DNA of 64,000 nt from Angelvirus px29. Taxonomy: Duplodnaviria > Heunggongvirae > Uroviricota > Caudoviricetes > Straboviridae. The notes beneath the pieces are model-generated. The model saw nothing but the letters and a program-made list of their open reading frames with translations, was not told where the DNA came from and did no database searches. Shown one piece after another: positions 952 to 59,862 of this stretch. Each line of letters begins with the position of its first letter. Position 1 is the first letter of the stretch. The position numbers and the translations under genes were made by a program. The stretch covers positions 11,520-75,519 of IMG/VR virus record IMGVR_UViG_2700988902_000001. One strand, written 5' to 3'.

Positions 952-3714
952 TTACCAATCGCCAAAAAGATCGGTAAGACTTGTTTTCTTCTCTGTATCC
1001 CAGCCAATAGCCTCGCAGATATTTTCCAGTGGTTTCAGAAAATGCTTTCCATACATCCCAGTATAGTCCAGATACTTGTTCAAATCGAGTTCGAATTCAT
1101 CTGGGATCTTCTCACCACTCGGGAACGCCAAGACGGGAGAATGTAACTGGTTCGGTTCTTTCAGCATGATAATCTGAATCTTTTCACCACTTCGAATCAT
1201 ATCAACGCGCTTTTGTTCGGCAAACTTGTTATAAGCCAATGCGCCTTTGATGTGACCCGGACAACCTTTGACAGGAACCCAGTTGTTGTGGTTCTTATCA
1301 ATATTGTTCGCGCTCGATACGGATGCAATCTCTCGATAATCTTTCGTAGGATACGCTGCCTTAACTTCTGCAACGTGCTCCTGTAGAGCAGCTTCACCCT
1401 TAGTCAGGATTAGCTTGATACTCTTCTCAAGCGATTTACCAGCGAATACCGGTGTGCTTGAACGTTGAGTTTCGATACCCATGATCTTGAGCTTGGGAAC
1501 AACTTTACCGTGTTCGTCTAGCTTGCGTTTACCTTCTGAGTCCCACACGTTAGCAGCATAACGCTTTTTACCTGTGATAAAGAAAGTATCAGCGATGATC
1601 TCTCGATCCATGAACAACTGGTGATCATATGCGTTGGTATATTCTGCCAACTCACGATAGCTTTGATCGATATACGGCTCGCATTTCTCTTTAGCGAATT
1701 TCGACAAGAAATCAACCCATCGAATTTTCTCGATGCTATCAACTTCAATACCTTTTCGAGCTGCCATTTGACTTACGAAAGTTTCGAACGTCATATAAAT
1801 GGAGTCAGTATCGCCGTAAACAACATAATCAATCTGATTGGTATTACACACAGCATTCATATATTCGTTCATCTTACGCATAATCCAACGAATAGCGAGT
1901 TGACCGGATACAGTGATTGCCTCAGCGTTTCTTGTGTCAAAGTAACGGAAATGCTGATTACCCAATGCGCCATAAAGTGAGTTGATCAATACCTTACGTG
2001 CTTGTTGGTTTACGTTTTCAAGCTTCTCCATAAAGCGACACCAAGCAACAACTTCGCTAAGTGTGGCACTCGGTAGAGAATGCAGAACAGATTTAAAATC
2101 TTCAAACTCTTGACCTTTCATAGAAAGATTAATCGAATGAATATCAAATCGCTCGGTGCTGAAATTATTTTCGTCCAGCTTACCGTCTTGACGACCGACA
2201 ATAATATCGTATGCGATTGTTGCGATCTTATCCGCTGTGAATTCGGCATTCTTTGCTGCTTTACGCTGCAAGAACACTTTATCGATCTCGGTCGGGATAA
2301 TACCACGTTTAGCGCGAGTATAACGCATCCCATTTGCTGCAAAAGTCATATCGTCTTTCGGGATCTCATATGTCTTTGCAATCATACCGGTGCCAAATAC
2401 ATCTGGTACCATGCGATCTTTCACGAAAGTTCGCGGAACATCAACCTGTCCCATAATCGTCTCTGGACTAATGTTCAGCCATTTGATGATGTGTGGATAC
2501 AGTGATGTCAAGTCGAAACTCATAATCCATTTATAGAAACCGGGGAACGGTTCTTTAACAAATGCACCAGCGAATTTCTCTTTGGTCGAACGCTTGTTTT
2601 CTGGAACAACGATGCCTTGTACGATCAGACTATTGTGAATAATCGCGTCCCAAGTTTTCAGTGGACTAAACACGTTTTGATAGTTGACTTTTGCGTAATA
2701 CGCTACACTGGTAATCAGTGCCATCAACGACAAACGAGCGTCTAGTTTAACCAACAAGTCAACGTCTCGAATCAAATAGTCAATATATCGCTGTGGATTT
2801 TTCTGACTAAATGCGAGGTATGTCTTCTCGGTCATTTCCAACTTTCTCATACCCAGTTCAACTTGACCGATGTAATCCAAACGATATGTTGGACGAGTCT
2901 TGAAAGTGAACTTCTTATAAGCTGCCATGTAATCGATACAAGCAATGCCCATAAGTTCATAGGTGATGATTTCTTCGGCATCTTCGTCATCGTCATTGTG
3001 AGCTATGCGCTCAACAATTTGCTCCCAAGGACTAAGCTTGTTTGCATAGACTTCACCGAGAACCTTGCGATATCGATTTACAATATAGCGCAAGTCGAAC
3101 ATTTCGGAGTTCCACCCGGAGAATACATCTGGTGTATTATCGCGGAAGAATTTCAGATACTTGATTAAAAGCTCTCGCTCAGACGCACAGAACGTATATT
3201 CTACGTGTTCGAGTGTGTCAACGCTCTTACCACTATCGTCTTTATCGAGAATCGATTTGGCGATGTCCCACGGTCTTGTGGTGAACAAAAAGAATTTCTT
3301 GCGCTTGGTACTATAATGACAGATACCATCAATTTCCCAATCGCAAATATGAGGTTCTGGGAAAGGTCCATCAGTCGGGACCTCAATATCGACAAACGCG
3401 ATATCCAGTTGCTCATAGTTGAATGAAATCGGACCGCTATACGTGTGATACAGATATTGAAGAATAAAGTCATCCATACCAAGCGGTTCGCGATTGATAT
3501 CGCGCATTTCTTTCATCCAACGTCTTGCATCGCCAATGCTATCATGTTGAACAGCAACAGCAGCACGACCATAGATATCTTTTAGATCTCCGTTTGCGGA
3601 GTGCTTATACATAATCGGTTTAAACGGGACTTTGCGAGTTCGAGAAAGTCCAGAGTCATCGATAAATCGTTCTAAAACCTGATTGCCTTGAATACAAATA
3701 TTCGTGTAAAACAT
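952..3714 (-). CDS. 43: DNA polymerase, family B (T4 gp43)
   Basis: 920 aa with exonuclease motifs and the polymerase motif YGDTDS. C-terminal LTDLFGDW clamp-binding tail. Synteny with regA/62/44/45. Confidence 0.95.
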   Translation of the reverse strand: MFYTNICIQGNQVLERFIDDSGLSRTRKVPFKPIMYKHSANGDLKDIYGRAAVAVQHDSIGDARRWMKEMRDINREPLGMDDFILQYLYHTYSGPISFNYEQLDIAFVDIEVPTDGPFPEPHICDWEIDGICHYSTKRKKFFLFTTRPWDIAKSILDKDDSGKSVDTLEHVEYTFCASERELLIKYLKFFRDNTPDVFSGWNSEMFDLRYIVNRYRKVLGEVYANKLSPWEQIVERIAHNDDDEDAEEIITYELMGIACIDYMAAYKKFTFKTRPTYRLDYIGQVELGMRKLEMTEKTYLAFSQKNPQRYIDYLIRDVDLLVKLDARLSLMALITSVAYYAKVNYQNVFSPLKTWDAIIHNSLIVQGIVVPENKRSTKEKFAGAFVKEPFPGFYKWIMSFDLTSLYPHIIKWLNISPETIMGQVDVPRTFVKDRMVPDVFGTGMIAKTYEIPKDDMTFAANGMRYTRAKRGIIPTEIDKVFLQRKAAKNAEFTADKIATIAYDIIVGRQDGKLDENNFSTERFDIHSINLSMKGQEFEDFKSVLHSLPSATLSEVVAWCRFMEKLENVNQQARKVLINSLYGALGNQHFRYFDTRNAEAITVSGQLAIRWIMRKMNEYMNAVCNTNQIDYVVYGDTDSIYMTFETFVSQMAARKGIEVDSIEKIRWVDFLSKFAKEKCEPYIDQSYRELAEYTNAYDHQLFMDREIIADTFFITGKKRYAANVWDSEGKRKLDEHGKVVPKLKIMGIETQRSSTPVFAGKSLEKSIKLILTKGEAALQEHVAEVKAAYPTKDYREIASVSSANNIDKNHNNWVPVKGCPGHIKGALAYNKFAEQKRVDMIRSGEKIQIIMLKEPNQLHSPVLAFPSGEKIPDEFELDLNKYLDYTGMYGKHFLKPLENICEAIGWDTEKKTSLTDLFGDW

Positions 3715-22877: not shown

Positions 22878-23338
22878 TAATTTATTCCTCTCGATAAGAT
22901 AATGCCAGTATACGCTTTTTTCTCGTTTTGATACTGCTCAATTACTTTCAGCCAGTGATTGGCAAGTTCGACACGCTTTTTGTAGTATTCAATCTCCTCC
23001 GCCGGTTTCATCAGAAGTTGAGAGAAATCATGGTATGCATGAATACCACCTTCAATCGGATAAACGTGATCACCACTAAAATATTTATAGTCGCGATTCG
23101 CATAACGCTTGAAAGCAAGATTCGCTAGTCCATTCATACAGACACACAGACCAAACCGGAGATCTTCCATATCCTTTGTGCTAACGCTTTTAAGAAAAAG
23201 AACATCACGCTTAAATCGTTCAGTGTCCATGAAAGCATCCAAGTGTTCAGTGAATGCTACTTTTTCGTGATCAATCGGTTCCGGTTTCTTGAACCAATTT
23301 CGAATCCAATTAAGCATCATTTTTCTCCAGACTAACAA
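22877..23338 (-). CDS. Hypothetical protein, paralog 2
   Basis: 153 aa. Motif ..YYKKRVELANHWLKVIE.. Start overlaps the stop of paralog 3. Confidence 0.55.
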   Translation of the reverse strand: MLVWRKMMLNWIRNWFKKPEPIDHEKVAFTEHLDAFMDTERFKRDVLFLKSVSTKDMEDLRFGLCVCMNGLANLAFKRYANRDYKYFSGDHVYPIEGGIHAYHDFSQLLMKPAEEIEYYKKRVELANHWLKVIEQYQNEKKAYTGIILSRGIN

Positions 23339-31109: not shown

Positions 31110-31137
31110 ATATTAACAGAAACCGGATTCTGTGCAA
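31110..31137 (-). promoter_or_regulatory. Sigma70-like early promoter + conserved leader
   Basis: Minus strand AAAGTCC-TTGCAC-N16-TAATAT-AGCTACATCGAAACGAG..GAGGAAAACATC-ATG. Confidence 0.6.
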
Positions 31138-35911: not shown

Positions 35912-36143
35912 TCAGAATTTTTCGATGTTAGATTTTACAAACTCAACAACCTGTGCAGTCAGCTTTTTACCAAGCTTCTTGCTAGAACCCGGACGACCAG
36001 TGTTAGCATAAACAGTGGCAGTGCCGTTAACGTCAAACACTCGAACATAGATACCGTTGACCCATACCGCAACTTCGATCTTACCATTCATTTCTTGCTT
36101 AGAGAATTGAGCAACACTGATAGTTTCGATTTGCTTGATCATG
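35912..36143 (-). CDS. Hypothetical protein
   Basis: True start probably MIKQIETI with SD CAGAGGAAAAT. The upstream part of the track ORF covers promoter TTGCGT-N16-TATTAT and an 11-bp IR CTTGCGTCTTG/CAAGACGCAAG at ~36170-36217. Confidence 0.45.
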
Positions 36144-36232
36144 ATATTTTCCTCTGTTCGTGTGTTTGACGTCTTGCGTCTTGATGTAGGTATAATATCA
36201 AACCGGTACCAAGACGCAAGCTCTTTTTTCAC

Positions 36233-46005: not shown

Positions 46006-46335
46006 TCAGATGTCAAACATTTTCATCAAAGAAGATTTTTCTTTTTTCTCGACGTTTGTGGCAATAATCTCATGATCGCTTTTCGTCTTTGAACCACCGG
46101 TATATGTAACCGCAAAATCAACAATGCGATCAATTCCAAACGTTTCATCAAACAGTTGATGTTTTTTGTTGCAGAAAATGACCTTATGTTTATTCATAAG
46201 ATTCAAAGCATAACGCGATGATTCTTCTTGCAACTTATAGCCAAACGAGTTTCTATCGTCATATCTGGTAAAGCTATTGATGTATGGCGGGTCCATAAAC
46301 ACCAACGAGTTTACGGGAAACCCGGTACTGCTCAT
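46006..46335 (-). CDS. Hypothetical protein
   Basis: 109 aa. Confidence 0.45.
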   Translation of the reverse strand: MSSTGFPVNSLVFMDPPYINSFTRYDDRNSFGYKLQEESSRYALNLMNKHKVIFCNKKHQLFDETFGIDRIVDFAVTYTGGSKTKSDHEIIATNVEKKEKSSLMKMFDI

Positions 46336-46397
46336 TTATCTCTACTTTGTTACGATGAAGATATCATACTCGATACATACACCGTGGTCAATCATTT

Positions 46398-46940
46398 TTA
46401 TTGAAAATCGGAAACTTTTGTATGATTCACGCTTACATCGCTTTCAACCGCCGCATTCATCTGAGTACAGCCTTGAAGCATCATGTATGGGTTGGTGTGC
46501 ATCAACTGAGAACCAATCACAACGCCTTGTTCGAAACCGGCTTGAACCTTAGCGGCATCATAGTTCGGATTAGATTTCGCATCTTTCAGAACTTTGGTCT
46601 TAAAGTGATTGTAGTAGCTGGAATTTGACATCCGAGCTTGAGCACACTTACTGGTGATACCAAGTCCACGACCCAGATTGAAAGAGAAGTTCTTGGCTTC
46701 ATCTTCTGCGATTCGTTGATCGATCTTGGCGTCGTTCTGGCGAGACCATTCTTTCTGCTCTGCTTCGATAGCGTTACGCGCTTCGCGTTCTTCCAGATTG
46801 ATTGTAAGCTGTTTGGCTTGTTCTTCCATGTTGTTCAGAAAGTTGATCTGACTATGACGCGCACCGATGTCGTATTCATCGGACGGGATAGAAGCACAAC
46901 CACCAAGCAGTAAACCAGCAATCAGAATAAGACGTTTCAT
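46398..46940 (-). CDS. Lipoprotein
   Basis: 180 aa. Signal peptide + lipobox MKRLILIAGLLLGGC|AS. Confidence 0.6.
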   Translation of the reverse strand: MKRLILIAGLLLGGCASIPSDEYDIGARHSQINFLNNMEEQAKQLTINLEEREARNAIEAEQKEWSRQNDAKIDQRIAEDEAKNFSFNLGRGLGITSKCAQARMSNSSYYNHFKTKVLKDAKSNPNYDAAKVQAGFEQGVVIGSQLMHTNPYMMLQGCTQMNAAVESDVSVNHTKVSDFQ

Positions 46941-47266
46941 TTGGCACCTACACAGTTAACAAAAATACGGAAATCGGACGGCGTGAGATTGATTTCAACG
47001 CGATCATTTTTTAACACAGGATTGTTGATGTTGTCAACCAGTTCCTGTTTGCTCATTTCAAAAAAGAAATGAGACGGGTCGGTTGGATTAAACGGGTCGG
47101 CAGTGTAGCTAGTGAACACAACACCGGTTTTTTGTCCAACGTGAGCGAAAGACATCAGAGAGCGATCATAACCACCTTCTTTGGTGAAAGTTTCGCACTC
47201 GGTAGTGGCAGCGGTAGCGCCGAAAGAAAACAGGGTAGCAACAAGAAACAGATTTTTCATTTTCAT
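46937..47266 (-). CDS. Secreted protein (signal peptide)
   Basis: Likely start MKMKNLFLVATLFSFGATA|ATTE. The track ORF extends further upstream into an inverted repeat. Confidence 0.5.
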   Translation of the reverse strand: MKMKNLFLVATLFSFGATAATTECETFTKEGGYDRSLMSFAHVGQKTGVVFTSYTADPFNPTDPSHFFFEMSKQELVDNINNPVLKNDRVEINLTPSDFRIFVNCVGAK

Positions 47267-47274
47267 TTTATTTT

Positions 47275-47392
47275 CGCGACCCACTAACGATAGCTCTAAG
47301 AATGCCCCCATTCACCTAGCACAAACAATTAAGTTAAGTTAAAAGTTAGTGTAAGAAAAGAGCTACCGTTAGTGGGTCCCGTCTCCAATTTG
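47275..47392. repeat. 20-bp near-perfect inverted repeat flanking a ~55-nt AT-rich spacer that contains a promoter-like sequence
   Basis: Left arm GACCCACTAACGATAGCTCT, right arm AGAGCTACCGTTAGTGGGTC (1 mismatch, G:U-compatible). Spacer holds TTGTGC on the minus strand. Confidence 0.6.
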
Positions 47393-47932
47393 TTATTTCA
47401 GATAAGAAGTAGCGGATTCAACACAACCGGAAATCATGTCTGCCGATCCGTTGATATCAACAGCATAACCACCAACGAGGGAAGAATCATCTTGAACACC
47501 GAGATAAACTTCGCCGGTTGCATACTTATCGACGTCAACCTTTACCTCATTGAAAGAAACGTATTCATACTGGAAGAATTCGTCATCAACCAATTCTTTA
47601 ACATCGGAGTTTGCAACCAGTTTGATTTGACGGGCAAACTCAGTTGCATTTGCTTTGCTCATTGCGCCAAACATCGGAGAAAGAGCTTGATTACCTTCCA
47701 GCATGTAGCCGATAACAACAACGGTATTGGATTTCAGATTCACACCGATACCGAGTTGTTCGGGACCAACTTCGCCTGTAAAGTCGATGGTACACACGTT
47801 AGCACTTCGTTTTGCTGCCAGTTGTGCTTGAACTTCGTCCATAGTCAGTTGAACAAAGTTTTCGACGGTAGCGGCATTCGCTACACAGGAAAAGCCGAAC
47901 AGCATTGCAAATACAGATTTCTTGAAATTCAT
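47393..47932 (-). CDS. Secreted protein (signal peptide)
   Basis: 179 aa. MNFKKSVFAMLFGFSCVANA|ATVEN. Confidence 0.55.
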   Translation of the reverse strand: MNFKKSVFAMLFGFSCVANAATVENFVQLTMDEVQAQLAAKRSANVCTIDFTGEVGPEQLGIGVNLKSNTVVVIGYMLEGNQALSPMFGAMSKANATEFARQIKLVANSDVKELVDDEFFQYEYVSFNEVKVDVDKYATGEVYLGVQDDSSLVGGYAVDINGSADMISGCVESATSYLK

Positions 47933-47955
47933 GATTAAGTCTCTTTGTTGTTTCG

Positions 47956-48270
47956 TTATGAAGCTATAGTAATCTCTTTAGCGACTGAGGTCAAGGTGTT
48001 TTTGAAATTTTTTGCGATTTCGAGTTCAGTTTCACCAAATACTTGCACGATTTGCCACATGTAAATGTTATCAAAGTCTGATGTTTCGTGAGAATAAACA
48101 CTTCTCAGAACTACCCAGTGATCTGAATATTTGTATTCAGATACTCCCCACCCACGACTAACTCGTTCTTTTTTGGTAGCGAATGCAACAGCATAAGCAC
48201 CACGAGGGACCGGACCATCATAGGTACTATCGCTAATATCGTATTGCTTTTCCTGAAAATAATACTTCAT
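47956..48270 (-). CDS. Hypothetical protein
   Basis: 104 aa. Confidence 0.45.
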   Translation of the reverse strand: MKYYFQEKQYDISDSTYDGPVPRGAYAVAFATKKERVSRGWGVSEYKYSDHWVVLRSVYSHETSDFDNIYMWQIVQVFGETELEIAKNFKNTLTSVAKEITIAS

Positions 48271-48272
48271 GA

Positions 48273-48734
48273 TTATTCCTCAAATGTAAGTAATGTAATA
48301 ACACGGTCTTCGCGTCGAATAATGCGAACATCATTAGGTGGATTTTTAACATACTCACGAATTTCGTTTTGTAGCTTTTCCGTGAACATTCCGTGTCTAT
48401 TACCCCATCTGATTTTCATCATATCAGAGTCAACAACAGGATACAAGCCATATTCCAGTTTTATTTGTTCTTCGTCAAACTTATAATCTCGAACTCGTTC
48501 CATATAGCGAACTAAAAAGTGGTCTGACAGATTCAGACAACCAACAGTTCGCCAAGTGTTATAACAAAAGTGATCTTGAATTCGTCCATTCTTCCAGTCG
48601 CCCGGCAATACAGTTCGTTCAACACCATTCAAAATACGATTGCTTTCAGCAATGCAATCGTTAATCTCTTGAAGTTGTTGATTGAGTTTTAGAACCTTCG
48701 ACGGACGAACTCGTCTAAGTCTACGACCTTGCAT
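48273..48734 (-). CDS. Hypothetical protein
   Basis: 153 aa. Confidence 0.45.
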   Translation of the reverse strand: MQGRRLRRVRPSKVLKLNQQLQEINDCIAESNRILNGVERTVLPGDWKNGRIQDHFCYNTWRTVGCLNLSDHFLVRYMERVRDYKFDEEQIKLEYGLYPVVDSDMMKIRWGNRHGMFTEKLQNEIREYVKNPPNDVRIIRREDRVITLLTFEE

Positions 48735-49378: not shown

Positions 49379-49801
49379 TTACGCAGTAACGAAATCGGCG
49401 ATGATTCGCGGATTGGCAATGTGACCACTCAGTTTCCAGATAGAAACGGTGTCGGTCGTGTTCTTGATCTTGTGTTCGCGAGCAACTTCCATCGCTTGTT
49501 TATCAGTCATAGGACTCATAAACACGCTTTGACCGTCTGCATTAGTAATTTGAACGATAGAGGTCAGTTTGCCTTGTTTGACACCAACACCAATATCACT
49601 CATGATCTTCTTGGCTTCGGTATCGTTGATCTCATCCAGAGACTTGATACTCAGATAAACACGTTTGCCGTCAATGCGCAGAACACCAGAACAAACACCA
49701 TCACGCCAAGTATAATCTTCCATCTTAGCAACAGCGCCGTGATGCTTAGATTTTACGTTGTTTACACGAACCATACCACGATAAGAAGTTTTTACAGCCA
49801 T
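49379..49801 (-). CDS. Hypothetical protein
   Basis: 140 aa. Confidence 0.45.
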   Translation of the reverse strand: MAVKTSYRGMVRVNNVKSKHHGAVAKMEDYTWRDGVCSGVLRIDGKRVYLSIKSLDEINDTEAKKIMSDIGVGVKQGKLTSIVQITNADGQSVFMSPMTDKQAMEVAREHKIKNTTDTVSIWKLSGHIANPRIIADFVTA

Positions 49802-49809
49802 TTTTCACC

Positions 49810-50370
49810 TCAGATAAATTTGAATGTTTGTAGTGCTTCTTGACTAAGTTGCACTACCAGGTCTTTTTCGATACAGAGCTTTGAATACAGGTCCAGCTTA
49901 TCAGCTTTCACCAGTATGTCAACGATTTTATCGAACTTTTCTTTTGCTTCCCAATCGCCGTCAGCAACGATTGTAAATTCAGCAGTCGCAACAACAAACT
50001 CGCCTTCTATACCACGCGCTTTGGTCAAGCTGTAGGCATAGAAATCAAAGCTTTCACGCTTTGCAACTGCGGCATATTTTCGCACTTCCTCGATGCTATG
50101 CATGACCGCATCAAGAGGGAACATTGTGTTGAAATTGTATTTCCACTTGCCATGATAGTCGAATGCGCCACAATGACGTTGCAGATCAACAAACAGGTTT
50201 TCATGACTGTCTTCATACATCGGACGATGTGCGCGATGATTCCATCCACAATGAGTATGGCCCATCTTACCAGCTTGTTGACAGTTCACGCGCTCCAGAT
50301 CATCTTGGATTGGTTTGCGTCCAGTGAACTTTTTAAACAGTTTGGCATCCATTTCGGTTTTAAGACGCAT
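49810..50370 (-). CDS. Hypothetical protein, His/Cys-rich segment (possible metal site)
   Basis: 186 aa. ..CQQAGKMGHTHCGWNHRAHRP..HENLFVDLQRHCGAFDYHGKW.. Confidence 0.45.
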   Translation of the reverse strand: MRLKTEMDAKLFKKFTGRKPIQDDLERVNCQQAGKMGHTHCGWNHRAHRPMYEDSHENLFVDLQRHCGAFDYHGKWKYNFNTMFPLDAVMHSIEEVRKYAAVAKRESFDFYAYSLTKARGIEGEFVVATAEFTIVADGDWEAKEKFDKIVDILVKADKLDLYSKLCIEKDLVVQLSQEALQTFKFI

Positions 50371-50532
50371 ATGAGATCTCCAAAATACCGTATATGAAGA
50401 TGATGAACATCACGATTACCCCATTTTTGAGACAGTCGATCATTTGCATCGGTGTGAACTTTGAATTAAACGTCATGTAAATCATACGAGCTATGAACAT
50501 CGCAACAAATACAATCAGAATATAATAACGCA

Positions 50533-57643: not shown

Positions 57644-57940
57644 TTACAGTAACTCCGTCATATATCGACTATACGCGATTGTATAATCGGAGTCAAATCC
57701 AGTAATGTCGTCCCAATCTTGATTAGGGTCTACCTTGATGATAAACCCATAACCGAGAAAAGGAATTTCACTGTTTGTTGCTACGCCAACAACGGTAGCT
57801 TTATACTTGCCAACGTTGCCGACTTTCTTGGAGACAAGTTCAACTTCAACTCGATCTCCGTTTTCAAACGGTCGCATCAAATAATCCTTGTTGTTTTGCT
57901 TGCTCGAATAGCGGGTGATTATCCGAAATCGATATATCAA
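57644..57940 (-). CDS. Hypothetical protein
   Basis: 98 aa. Confidence 0.45.
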   Translation of the reverse strand: MIYRFRIITRYSSKQNNKDYLMRPFENGDRVEVELVSKKVGNVGKYKATVVGVATNSEIPFLGYGFIIKVDPNQDWDDITGFDSDYTIAYSRYMTELL

Positions 57941-58103
57941 GAGCTTTTATGATAAGACTAATGTCTTGTAATGTCAACTCTTTTTTCACGATTTTGTGTG
58001 TTTTCGGAATATAGATTGAACCAACCAAACTATTTCCACCGCGACGATACCAGTTTTCTCGTTGCTCGATCAATTCGTGTTGATGAAGTGCATCTTGACT
58101 CAC
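57864..58103 (-). CDS. Hypothetical protein
   Basis: 79 aa. Overlaps its neighbour, so the start may be internal. Confidence 0.4.
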   Translation of the reverse strand: MSQDALHQHELIEQRENWYRRGGNSLVGSIYIPKTHKIVKKELTLQDISLIIKALDISISDNHPLFEQAKQQGLFDATV

Positions 58104-59074
58104 AGCAGATTACTCCTGTCACCATAGTTTACTTCTTCAACGTACATTTCGTAAAGGAAATTATCCCAGAACTCGGTATCCACTTTTTCACGCATACCGT
58201 TTTTCTTGGCGATAACAATCTCTTTCTCGACGTCATTCATGAGCTGTTCGAGATACGGGTTAACTTCATCGACAAGACTACGCTTTCCTAGCTTGATGTC
58301 AAGGATAAATTCGCGATGTTTCAGTGGGAATTTCAGATCACCAGTTCGATAGATCTCAAGCAGTTGCTCACCTCCGCGCACGGCATGAGACAGTGCTTTC
58401 CAGTCAACACCGACCTCTTCTTTGGCTTTCTTAGCACGATCACCGTATTCTTCCCAGATCTTTGTGATCTGATGCTCAAATTCAGTAAACTTGATGCCAT
58501 AAAGATACTTGCGACCCAACACTTCATAGAATTGAACAACTTCACCGGTTCGACTAATTTCAGCACCCGGGAACGTGAATTCATCGGTAGGCAGTCGTCC
58601 AACGAAGCTGGACAGACGGTAGCCACGTTCGTCTTGTGGTACTGCTTTGACTACTGCCATAACTCGTTCCAGAGCGGCCAATCGCGTACCTTTCACACCG
58701 TACTTTGTTGCTTGTTTGCGACAGTAACCCAAGAAAGCGTCCATCTTGGTAGTGTAGAACATCGAGCGTTTTTGATGAATGTAATCCCAATATTTCGTGG
58801 TTTCGATCAGTTGATTACTATGCAACATATCAATGCACATAGTTTCGCCTTTGCTTGCGAGTCGCAAGAACTGACGCAAGGACATCATTTCGGTATCGAT
58901 ATCATCAACGGTATTTTTACCTTTACCGCCAGTCGATTCGTTGTAGACCTCACGTCCACCAAGAATGATTTCGCGAGCAGTAGGGATAAAGATCCCTTTA
59001 TAATCTCGGTCGGATGTTGGCGTACTCAGCCCATACAAATGCGAGCCGAACACGGTTTTCATTAGAGTTTTCAT
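58100..59074 (-). CDS. Pol-beta-superfamily nucleotidyltransferase domain protein
   Basis: 324 aa. N-terminal FGSHLYGLSTPTSDRDYKGIF (GS-x10-DxD minimal NTase motif) plus a helical C-terminal domain. Confidence 0.6.
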   Translation of the reverse strand: MKTLMKTVFGSHLYGLSTPTSDRDYKGIFIPTAREIILGGREVYNESTGGKGKNTVDDIDTEMMSLRQFLRLASKGETMCIDMLHSNQLIETTKYWDYIHQKRSMFYTTKMDAFLGYCRKQATKYGVKGTRLAALERVMAVVKAVPQDERGYRLSSFVGRLPTDEFTFPGAEISRTGEVVQFYEVLGRKYLYGIKFTEFEHQITKIWEEYGDRAKKAKEEVGVDWKALSHAVRGGEQLLEIYRTGDLKFPLKHREFILDIKLGKRSLVDEVNPYLEQLMNDVEKEIVIAKKNGMREKVDTEFWDNFLYEMYVEEVNYGDRSNLL

Positions 59075-59418
59075 TTAGTTTCCTCGAAGAAGTCAACAGA
59101 TTTTGTGATTTGACTTGAACTTTCTTTGAAATAATCAACCACGGTTTGTTCGTTTCGACCCATAGCACTCATGAACATTTTTGCTTGGCTTATCGTCATT
59201 GGACCGGTAGTCCGATTCCAACCCAGAAAAACGAAATACTTCTCTTGTTCTTGAATCTGAATCCCATATCGAAGCAGATTCTTATTCAGAACCGGCAGCT
59301 TGCTCAAGAATTTATCGCGATCCAGATAGTTCATGATCTTGACGTAGACAAGACGACAAACGAGCAGGAACACGAAAAGAATAATAACTTCTTTCAGACC
59401 AATTTCAATAACGTTCAT
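59071..59418 (-). CDS. Membrane-anchored hypothetical protein
   Basis: 115 aa. N-terminal TM VIILFVFLLVCRLVYV. Confidence 0.45.
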   Translation of the reverse strand: MNVIEIGLKEVIILFVFLLVCRLVYVKIMNYLDRDKFLSKLPVLNKNLLRYGIQIQEQEKYFVFLGWNRTTGPMTISQAKMFMSAMGRNEQTVVDYFKESSSQITKSVDFFEETK

Positions 59419-59744
59419 TACTGCATCGCCTTTTGTTGATAGAGTTCAGCCAAGTTTTTGTTCAGTCGCTCGATAGCTTGATCCATAGTCTCAGCATTCG
59501 AATCATAATTATCAGCGGTCGAATCATAATGTGATGTCGATTTGCCATGATTCACAGACCAATGAGTCGAAGTTGTATCTGGGCAACGAGTCACATACAG
59601 ATTTTGATCTGATTTGGATCGTAGATAAAACACTTTACAGCCAGTTAGACCTTCCGGCATTTGATATGCGTTCGTGGTCTCAGTTGTTACAGTATCGCAT
59701 CCCATTAGAGCAAATGCAAGAGCAATTACAGCAAATTTTTTCAT
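59418..59744 (-). CDS. Lipoprotein
   Basis: 108 aa. MKKFAVIALAFALMGC|DT lipobox. Confidence 0.55.
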   Translation of the reverse strand: MKKFAVIALAFALMGCDTVTTETTNAYQMPEGLTGCKVFYLRSKSDQNLYVTRCPDTTSTHWSVNHGKSTSHYDSTADNYDSNAETMDQAIERLNKNLAELYQQKAMQ

Positions 59745-59862
59745 ATTTCAAGCCACTCCAGTATAGGTAAAATCGCTTTGAGAACCATGATCATGAAGTC
59801 GTTACTCCCGATCATGGCCCAGATTATCACGTTCAGAACTAACGCAATATCACATATTACAT

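Follow-up and report, generated by a model that had tools for sequence, protein, structure and literature searches.

The 64 000 nt stretch of DNA analysed here (the window) is from Aeromonas phage PX29 (GU396103), to which it is 100% identical, and positions 46400–48300 of the window correspond to 57919–59819 of that record. The subject of this report is an inverted repeat, and the RNA structure that it is predicted to form, in the gap between two genes, PX29p095 upstream and PX29p094 downstream. All of the genes in the region are on the minus strand, and the element is described here 5′ to 3′ on that strand, which is the sense strand. PX29p095 (47393–47932), found in the open reading frame list and in GenBank, encodes a 179 aa protein and ends in a TAA stop codon at 47393–47395. 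PX29p094 (46937–47266) encodes a 109 aa protein that starts at a conserved ATG at 47264–47266. The translations of p095, p094 and the next gene, p093, each begin with a signal peptide, in keeping with a preliminary description of the sequence that had placed the repeat in a cluster of secreted-protein genes, and signal peptides were also predicted for the Aeh1 orthologues ORF096c, ORF095c and ORF094c (Nolan et al. 2006). The sequence of p093 is lipoprotein-like. When the three proteins were compared with Pfam and PHROGs, only families of unknown function were returned, that of p095 being PHROG 21751.

A repeat search identified two 23 nt arms, at 47275–47297 and 47359–47381, that are 91% complementary and 61 nt apart. 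The 20 nt core arms are at 47278–47297 and 47359–47378, and the whole repeat reaches from 47275 to 47381. The core, GACCCACTAACG[A/G]TAGCTCT, is present in exactly two copies in the window, one on each strand, where none was expected from 100 shuffles. The near-perfect 20 bp inverted repeat of the preliminary description is thus real and is not a product of chance. In the sense RNA all 20 core positions pair, including one G·U pair, while the plus strand has an A·C mismatch at that position, and the single A/G difference between the arms is therefore compatible with pairing in RNA, as had been proposed. Beyond the core there is a 1×1 internal loop and then two further pairs. The spacer is AT-rich, as described (33% G+C versus 41.7% for the window), though it is 61 nt rather than approximately 55 nt long. 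The repeat is also intercistronic, as described, but its 5′ arm does not abut the stop codon of p095; in the direction of transcription, it begins 14 nt past the TAA. Between the 3′ arm and the p094 ATG there are 11 nt, or 8 nt when the 2 bp extension is counted. Terminator-like stems nearby are of only 5–7 bp, so the 20 bp stem is, as claimed, far longer than the terminators of the window. One other inverted repeat alone in the window has comparable arm length and complementarity (21 nt, 90%).

The sense RNA has a predicted folding energy of −51.2 kcal/mol (z = −7.67 relative to dinucleotide shuffles) and a predicted three-way junction formed by helices P1, P2 and P3, all on the minus strand. 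The 5′ strand of P1 (47359–47381) is made up of the arm at 47359–47378 and, at 47379–47381, the 1×1 loop and the 2 bp extension, and its 3′ strand (47275–47297) is made up of the arm at 47278–47297 and the extension at 47275–47277. P2 is an A/U-rich hairpin (47315–47355) that is found in both the minimum free energy and the centroid folds, and the CUUA/UAGG pairing at its base includes part of an internal AGGUGA motif. P3 is a hairpin, GAAUG-GGGG-CAUUC (47300–47313), that is invariant in all sequences and holds the AUG of a possible upstream open reading frame (uORF). The pairing probability of P1 was approximately 1 in contexts of 446–465 nt. A three-way junction is predicted for every homologue, and while the apex of P2 differs by indels in Aeh1 and phiAS5, the hairpin is still predicted there. 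No Rfam 15 family matched the element. The best hits were microRNA precursor models with scores of 20.5 and 15.6 bits, against a gathering threshold of 83, and these reflect hairpin shape only. A search of the element for a tRNA or tmRNA returned none.

The locus is present in 13 phage records, from PX29, three AsFcp isolates, Aeh1, Ah1, avDM12-TAAL, phiAS5 and phiWae14. In all 13, the element is found once per genome, between the same two orthologous genes. The preliminary description would have been undermined by absence of the repeat from related phages, and comparison of the orthologous loci revealed that it is conserved in every one. Over the 146 nt intergenic block, nucleotide identity to PX29 is 93.7–96.8% for Ah1, avDM12 and Aeh1 and 89% for phiAS5 and phiWae14. 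Over the surrounding 1.9 kb, it is 74–76% for the first group, and for phiAS5 and phiWae14 megablast returned a match to the element alone. The amino acid identities of the flanking proteins are 71–72% (p095) and 52–54% (p094) for Ah1, avDM12 and Aeh1, and 53% and 30%, respectively, for phiAS5 and phiWae14. In a six-genome alignment of approximately 6 kb, the 60 nt windows at 47360–47302 and 47331–47272 were the only ones with more than 85% identity to all five relatives. The conserved block extends from a GAG just 5′ of the helix to the AUGAAA of p094, and the bases between the p095 stop codon and the GAG are variable and include indels. The element therefore appears to be under much stronger constraint than the genes on either side of it, recent exchange between phages being the alternative.

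Beyond these phages, no homologue was found in IMG/VR, in the JGI metagenomes or in one genome each of 185 579 species. The search of Logan recovered two contig types, one of which is a new single-base variant, and when the upstream protein was used to query 5.8 billion proteins only four clusters were returned. The clade that carries the element is small. A lone exact match to the 20 nt core was found among the 185 579 species genomes, in Neobacillus mesonae (NZ_KV440949.1; 3186–3205 in the extracted sequence L012). As its flanks are unrelated and only 49 of 123 positions (40%) are identical, the 20-mer included, it was rejected as a homologue and is a chance match.

Across the homologues, 99% of the pairing cells are paired, versus 29–41% in slid controls. 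The substitutions sit in P1 and in the apex of P2, and none is seen in P3, at the base of P2 or in the junctions. The strand on which pairing is best was also compared. In sequences of the PX29 type 20/20 core positions pair on the sense strand and 19/20 on the other, while in phiAS5 the corresponding figures are 18/20 and 19/20. As pairing is perfect on the sense strand only in four of the five lineages, the element is best read as an RNA-level feature of a read-through mRNA.

The element of Aeh1 has P1 arms of the Ah1/avDM12 type and a P2 apex, CTT--ATTAAACG, that is identical to that of phiAS5 and phiWae14. The mixed apex lies at window positions 47325–47345 (approximately 3070–3085 in the Aeh1 sequence L002). 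This suggests either recombination within the element or an old polymorphism.

The preliminary description had the spacer containing a promoter, and this was not borne out. The early promoters of this phage have the form TTGnnn, 16 nt, then TAATATAGCTACATCGAAACGAGG, and an nhmmer profile built from eight such sites recovered 14 sites in the window at E<0.02, but nothing in 47260–47400 even at E≤100. A sigma-70 consensus scan found no site matching at 9/12 positions or better in the element, and a relaxed scan gave 7/12 at best. There is no TATAAATA in the element, the sole copy in the window being at 23082. A MotA-type middle promoter was also considered and rejected, as TGTGCTAGG matches the Mot box at only 5/9 positions, and phages of the Aeh1 type have no MotA and no recognisable middle promoters. 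The likeness of the arm to the leader block of the early promoters, which had been suggested, was not upheld either; TAGAGCTATCG can be aligned with TATAGCTACATCG only with a 2 nt gap, and the profile of that block gave no match. In Aeh1, where the element is at 68722–68845, the nearest published early promoters are Pe:71455 and Pe:67873, which flank the operon, and the lists include no early promoter at the orthologous position and no terminator between ORF096c and ORF095c (Nolan et al. 2006). No terminator-like site was predicted in the p095–p094 gap, where the helix is not followed by a U-tract on the sense strand, and an intrinsic terminator was rejected. Given that neither a promoter nor a terminator was found in the gap, and that the Aeh1 early promoters lie on either side, the element is most likely transcribed as an internal part of a polycistronic early RNA.

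The feet of P1 carry what look like the two halves of a translation initiation region. On the 5′ side, an orphan Shine–Dalgarno (SD)-like GGAG at 47383–47386 lies 6 nt past the p095 stop codon and 1 nt before the helix, with no start codon next to it in the linear sequence. On the 3′ side, an A-rich spacer, AAAAUAAA (47267–47274), is predicted to be single-stranded from the foot of the helix to the ATG, and is 7 nt long in the relatives, placing the AUG 7–8 A-rich nt 3′ of P1. The sequence immediately 5′ of P1 is UUGGAGA in PX29, GGGAGA in Ah1, GGGAGG in Aeh1 and avDM12, and UGAGG in phiAS5. The SD core thus alternates between GGAG and GAGG and is present in every lineage, and the bases 5′ of it vary. 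A GGAG or GAGG is found within the 7 nt 5′ of a point at 1.2% of minus-strand positions. Most of the neighbouring genes have GAGG, GGAG or AGGA 6–8 nt before the ATG, and in the last 20 nt before the p094 ATG (−20 to −1 in the linear sequence) there is only GUGGG, which is paired in P1.

In the linear RNA, the gap between GGAG or GAGG and the AUG is 112–116 nt, a distance at which the SD would not function, and no nearer SD is usable. With P1 closed, a distance of 7–9 nt is predicted for each of the seven distinct sequences. This matches or slightly exceeds the 6–8 nt of the ordinary genes of this phage, and it falls in the range of approximately 5–11 nt that a stable fold would have to provide. 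At this virtual spacing, the virtual SD:anti-SD energy is −6.2 to −10.2 kcal/mol. When the element is removed, the junction reads stop codon, 2–6 nt, SD, 7–9 nt, AUG, which is an ordinary junction.

From these features, it is probable that a cis-acting RNA structure on the sense strand governs the expression of p094. P1 (20 bp and the 2 bp extension) would close a 105–108 nt three-way-junction RNA in the gap between two co-transcribed early genes, and this RNA would act in cis on the expression of the downstream secreted-protein gene. As to how it does so, our tentative preference is for a split translation initiation region. Formation of P1 would bring the GGAG or GAGG to within 7–9 nt of the p094 AUG, and a 30S subunit, or a ribosome terminating on p095, could then start on p094. 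We infer from the models that the RNA folds as predicted in the cell and that the SD motif is used across the helix. The invariant bases of P2, P3 and the junction may carry an added function, such as repressor binding or sensitivity to processing.

The closest precedents are genes 38 and 25 of T4, in which a hairpin cuts SD–AUG spacings of 22 and 27 nt to 5 and 11 nt, respectively (PMC3014915), and in which destabilising the hairpin lowers translation (PMC3014915; Nivinskas et al. 1999 and Malys and Nivinskas 2009, summarised there). As in those genes, the SD and AUG are linearly too far apart in PX29 and a stable structure would give a working distance (7–9 nt here, 5 and 11 nt in T4), and the arrangement, conserved within a clade of related phages, is intercistronic and comes just past the stop codon of the upstream gene. 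The two differ in that the T4 structures are hairpins in gaps of 22 or 27 nt, whereas here the gap holds a 105–108 nt three-way junction closed by 20–22 bp. The internal loops here are also invariant, and the genes are early genes of unknown function.

Several observations weigh against a split initiation region. The insert is a three-way junction rather than a small, simple hairpin, it is five to seven times larger than the T4 precedents, and its 20–22 bp helix far exceeds what juxtaposition needs. A 20 bp duplex is likely to be a substrate for RNase III, and cleavage would part the SD from the AUG. When the RNA is folded in a long context, the GGAG pairs in part with coding sequence upstream of it, and about a quarter of the neighbouring genes also have no strong SD, so an SD is not obligatory. 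The model leaves the invariant loops and junction, alongside a substituted P1, unexplained, and this substitution pattern is the opposite of that expected for a helix that is important by its shape alone. Covariation is weak, with one compensatory pair (A-U to G-C) and one G·U to A-U change among seven distinct sequences, and 71 of 500 shuffles reached the observed covariation score. It is too sparse to prove the fold. There are also three disruptive events in P1, namely C·A and C·C in phiAS5 and C·A in the Logan variant (L016). Finally, only four or five independent lineages are represented, and a recent exchange between phages may account for part of their high identity.

No described element of this sequence or architecture was found. 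The nearest mechanism is that of the T4 split initiation regions, from which the element is set apart by its size, complexity and loop conservation. Control of translation by mRNA structure has its classic examples in T4-type phages, and confirmation of the split initiation region would show that ribosomes can be assembled over a structured insert longer than 100 nt. The element would then be a new, sharply conserved cis-regulatory RNA in three genera of Aeromonas phages (Angelvirus, Cinqassovirus and Chrysonvirus), and the early gene under its control would be one that encodes an exported protein of unknown function.

The explanation that best survives alongside the split initiation region, and which we consider somewhat unlikely, is that P1 is an RNase III processing or mRNA-stability site, at which cleavage by the host enzyme uncouples the upstream and downstream cistrons. 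Approximately 20 bp is the canonical minimum substrate length for RNase III, as for the Escherichia coli enzyme and the phage T7 early sites. With 20 contiguous pairs and two more, P1 reaches this length (18/20 pairs in phiAS5). It is longer than any translational role requires, and it occupies an intercistronic position in a predicted early operon where no promoter or terminator was found. The sites in T7 early mRNA and in rRNA operons are similar in having about two turns of dsRNA, conserved among relatives, between one cistron and the next of an early polycistronic RNA. The T7 sites, though, are hairpins of approximately 60 nt with an internal bubble and no strongly conserved apex, whereas in PX29 a structured, sequence-invariant domain of 61 nt sits atop the helix. 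RNase III recognises shape and not sequence, and the near-identity of the loops is therefore unexplained by RNase III alone; cleavage could also release the P2–P3 domain as a small stable RNA, and release of a structured RNA would explain the invariance of P2, P3 and the junction. The mismatches in P1, two in phiAS5 and one in the Logan variant, also count against a processing site, and the orphan SD at the foot of the helix is left without explanation. No major role of RNase III is reported for the early mRNAs of T4-type phages, and the term is absent from one review (PMC3014915). Were the element no more than an RNase III site or a stabiliser, only the strength of its conservation would be out of the ordinary.

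A further reading, which we regard as unlikely, is that the invariant P2–P3 junction domain is itself a functional RNA. It might be an operator or sensor, responding to a phage or host protein or to a small molecule, that switches the split ribosome-binding site, or a stable RNA of approximately 85 nt that is excised from the early mRNA by RNase III and acts in trans. In a phage group with no characterised RNA that responds to a protein or ligand, the invariant junction is a candidate for one; no riboregulator of this kind is recorded as functionally characterised in T4-type phages in the review (PMC3014915). A functional P2–P3 RNA would be the first such riboregulator described in a T4-type phage.

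It is also possible, though quite unlikely, that p094 is translated by coupling to the uORF that starts in P3. Ribosomes would start at the P3 AUG (47309–47311), translate 15 codons (47267–47311; MGAFLELSLVGRE.K) that run through the 3′ arm, melting P1, and terminate at a UGA that overlaps the p094 AUG (AUGA), where they would reinitiate. In PX29, a 7 nt indel has fused the uORF in frame to p094, and ribosomes would read on into it. The uORF is open in all lineages, ending at AUGA or fused in frame, and p094 has no nearby SD of its own. The uORF AUG is preceded by AGGUGA, and AGGUG is the SD of the neighbouring p093, but the spacing to the AUG is only 1–3 nt (1 nt from AGGUGA), and the AUG is predicted to be paired in P3 and half of the SD in P2. 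Three substitution events in the 3′ arm (TCG to TCC, TCG to TCA and GGT to GGC) are all at synonymous third positions. However, they fall at just two sites (p approximately 0.04–0.12 only), and 15 open codons would be expected by chance in about half of cases. Excluding the start codon, ten of the 12 third positions never vary, which indicates that constraint on RNA or DNA dominates, and regions 5′ of the uORF AUG are equally invariant yet non-coding.

The GenBank start of p094 is a GTG at 47284 (minus strand), inside the 3′ arm of the helix. It is not conserved, and its frame is open in the PX29 lineage only, via the 7 nt indel. All of the relatives share the ATG at 47264–47266 as their start, and the deposited start is therefore probably wrong.

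An origin of the conservation at the level of DNA, or in a relic, appears improbable. The candidates are a protein-binding site, an origin, a linker for recombination between mosaic modules or an old insertion of the MITE-like kind that has parted the SD from its AUG. The ordinary junction that remains when the element is removed is what an insertion would leave, the genomes are mosaic around the element, and Aeh1 joins Ah1-type arms to a phiAS5-type P2 apex. The strand evidence is also not uniform, as phiAS5 pairs better on the plus strand. Against this, there is one copy per genome, no direct repeats were seen flanking the arms when the sequence was read by eye, and the element was absent from the species genomes, the JGI metagenomes and IMG/VR outside these phages. 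A relic would be expected to decay, yet the element is the best-conserved stretch of the locus. A spacer of 61 bp disfavours cruciform extrusion. The loop sequence is invariant, there is a single copy, and no recombinase or nuclease gene lies nearby, and these features lend no support to the cruciform or DNA-enzyme target that had been put forward in the preliminary description.

The weakest explanation, and a highly improbable one, is the inhibitory hairpin, in which p094 is silenced on read-through RNA and a promoter in the spacer gives a shorter, translatable RNA: the layout, with inverted arms on either side of an A/T-rich spacer ahead of a gene, is a superficial match to this mechanism, documented for T4 e, soc, 49 and I-TevI and for Aeh1 mobE (PMC3014915), but the promoter searches of the spacer were negative as described above, none was predicted in Aeh1, phages of this type have no MotA and middle promoters, and a transcript initiated in the spacer would lose the sole SD. 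The element does share with those hairpins a long-range mRNA helix by a start site in read-through transcripts, and mobE shows that Aeh1 uses RNA hairpins in translational control (PMC3014915). Their helices, however, bury the SD and/or the AUG and an internal late promoter is present, whereas in PX29 neither is buried and no promoter was detected inside the element or at its 5′ arm. Sequestration of the downstream leader, another suggestion of the preliminary description, likewise finds no support in the fold, as the helix ends 8–11 nt before the AUG and covers no SD, and the AUG region is predicted to be open.

Other identities considered for the element were rejected. With a single copy in each of the 13 records, and no second copy in the window by pattern, by blastn-short or with a covariance model built from the element, it is not a repeated or mobile element of the promoter-stem-loop (PeSL), MITE or ERIC-like kind. 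GCUCUUU at 47357–47363 (minus strand), at the 3′ end of the 5′ arm, is the 7 nt core of boxA, the NusB/NusE site of nut and rrn antiterminators, but it is paired in P1 and nothing else matches, and we consider it a coincidence. A read-through extension of p095 is not plausible, as the frame stops after seven codons and the region is not conserved. Translational bypass from p095 to p094, of the T4 gene 60 type, was dismissed because the take-off codon is not in a hairpin, the gap is approximately 125 nt, and p094 starts at a conserved AUG of its own and has a signal peptide. In each lineage, the final sense codon of p095 does recur in frame by the p094 start, as AAA in PX29 (47396–47398 and 47267–47269), AAC in Aeh1, Ah1 and avDM12, and CUG in phiAS5, and this was judged coincidental.

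Each genome of phages RB49 and phi1 reportedly has more than 60 copies of the PeSL cassette, which includes an early promoter (Arbiol et al. 2010). The PX29 element resembles them in being conserved regulatory DNA between genes of the variable early regions of T4-type phages, and is unlike them in being single-copy and in having no detected promoter. A different set of sequences in PX29 recalls the PeSL cassettes. Approximately 14 early-promoter cassettes are found on the minus strand of the window (e.g. 52081–52024, 31149–31090, 44827–44768, 29301–29242, 36942–36893 and 55105–51051), with a strongly conserved initial transcribed region (TAATATAGCTACATCGAAACGAGG). Those at 31112, 36915 and 55072 are directly preceded by the same terminator hairpin, AAACCACCTTCGGGTGGTTTTTT, and it is these terminator-plus-promoter cassettes that are reminiscent of PeSL.

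The locus around the element is mosaic. At 46006–46395, PX29 has an insertion of approximately 360 nt relative to Aeh1, Ah1, avDM12 and phiAS5 that carries the gene p092 and has its own promoter-like site, TTGACC-17-TATGAT, at 46391–46363. Other lineage-specific indels are at approximately 49361 and at 49770–50400.

The second inverted repeat of comparable length in the window, at 36030–36050 and 36152–36172 (minus strand), has arms that are 101 nt apart. Its 5′ arm is the leader, including the SD, of a transcript from an early promoter at approximately 36231–36171, and its 3′ arm is approximately 100 nt into the coding region of the same small gene (35912–36142), the ribosome-binding site of which the repeat could sequester. 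This small gene was found in PX29 and AsFcp_2 only.

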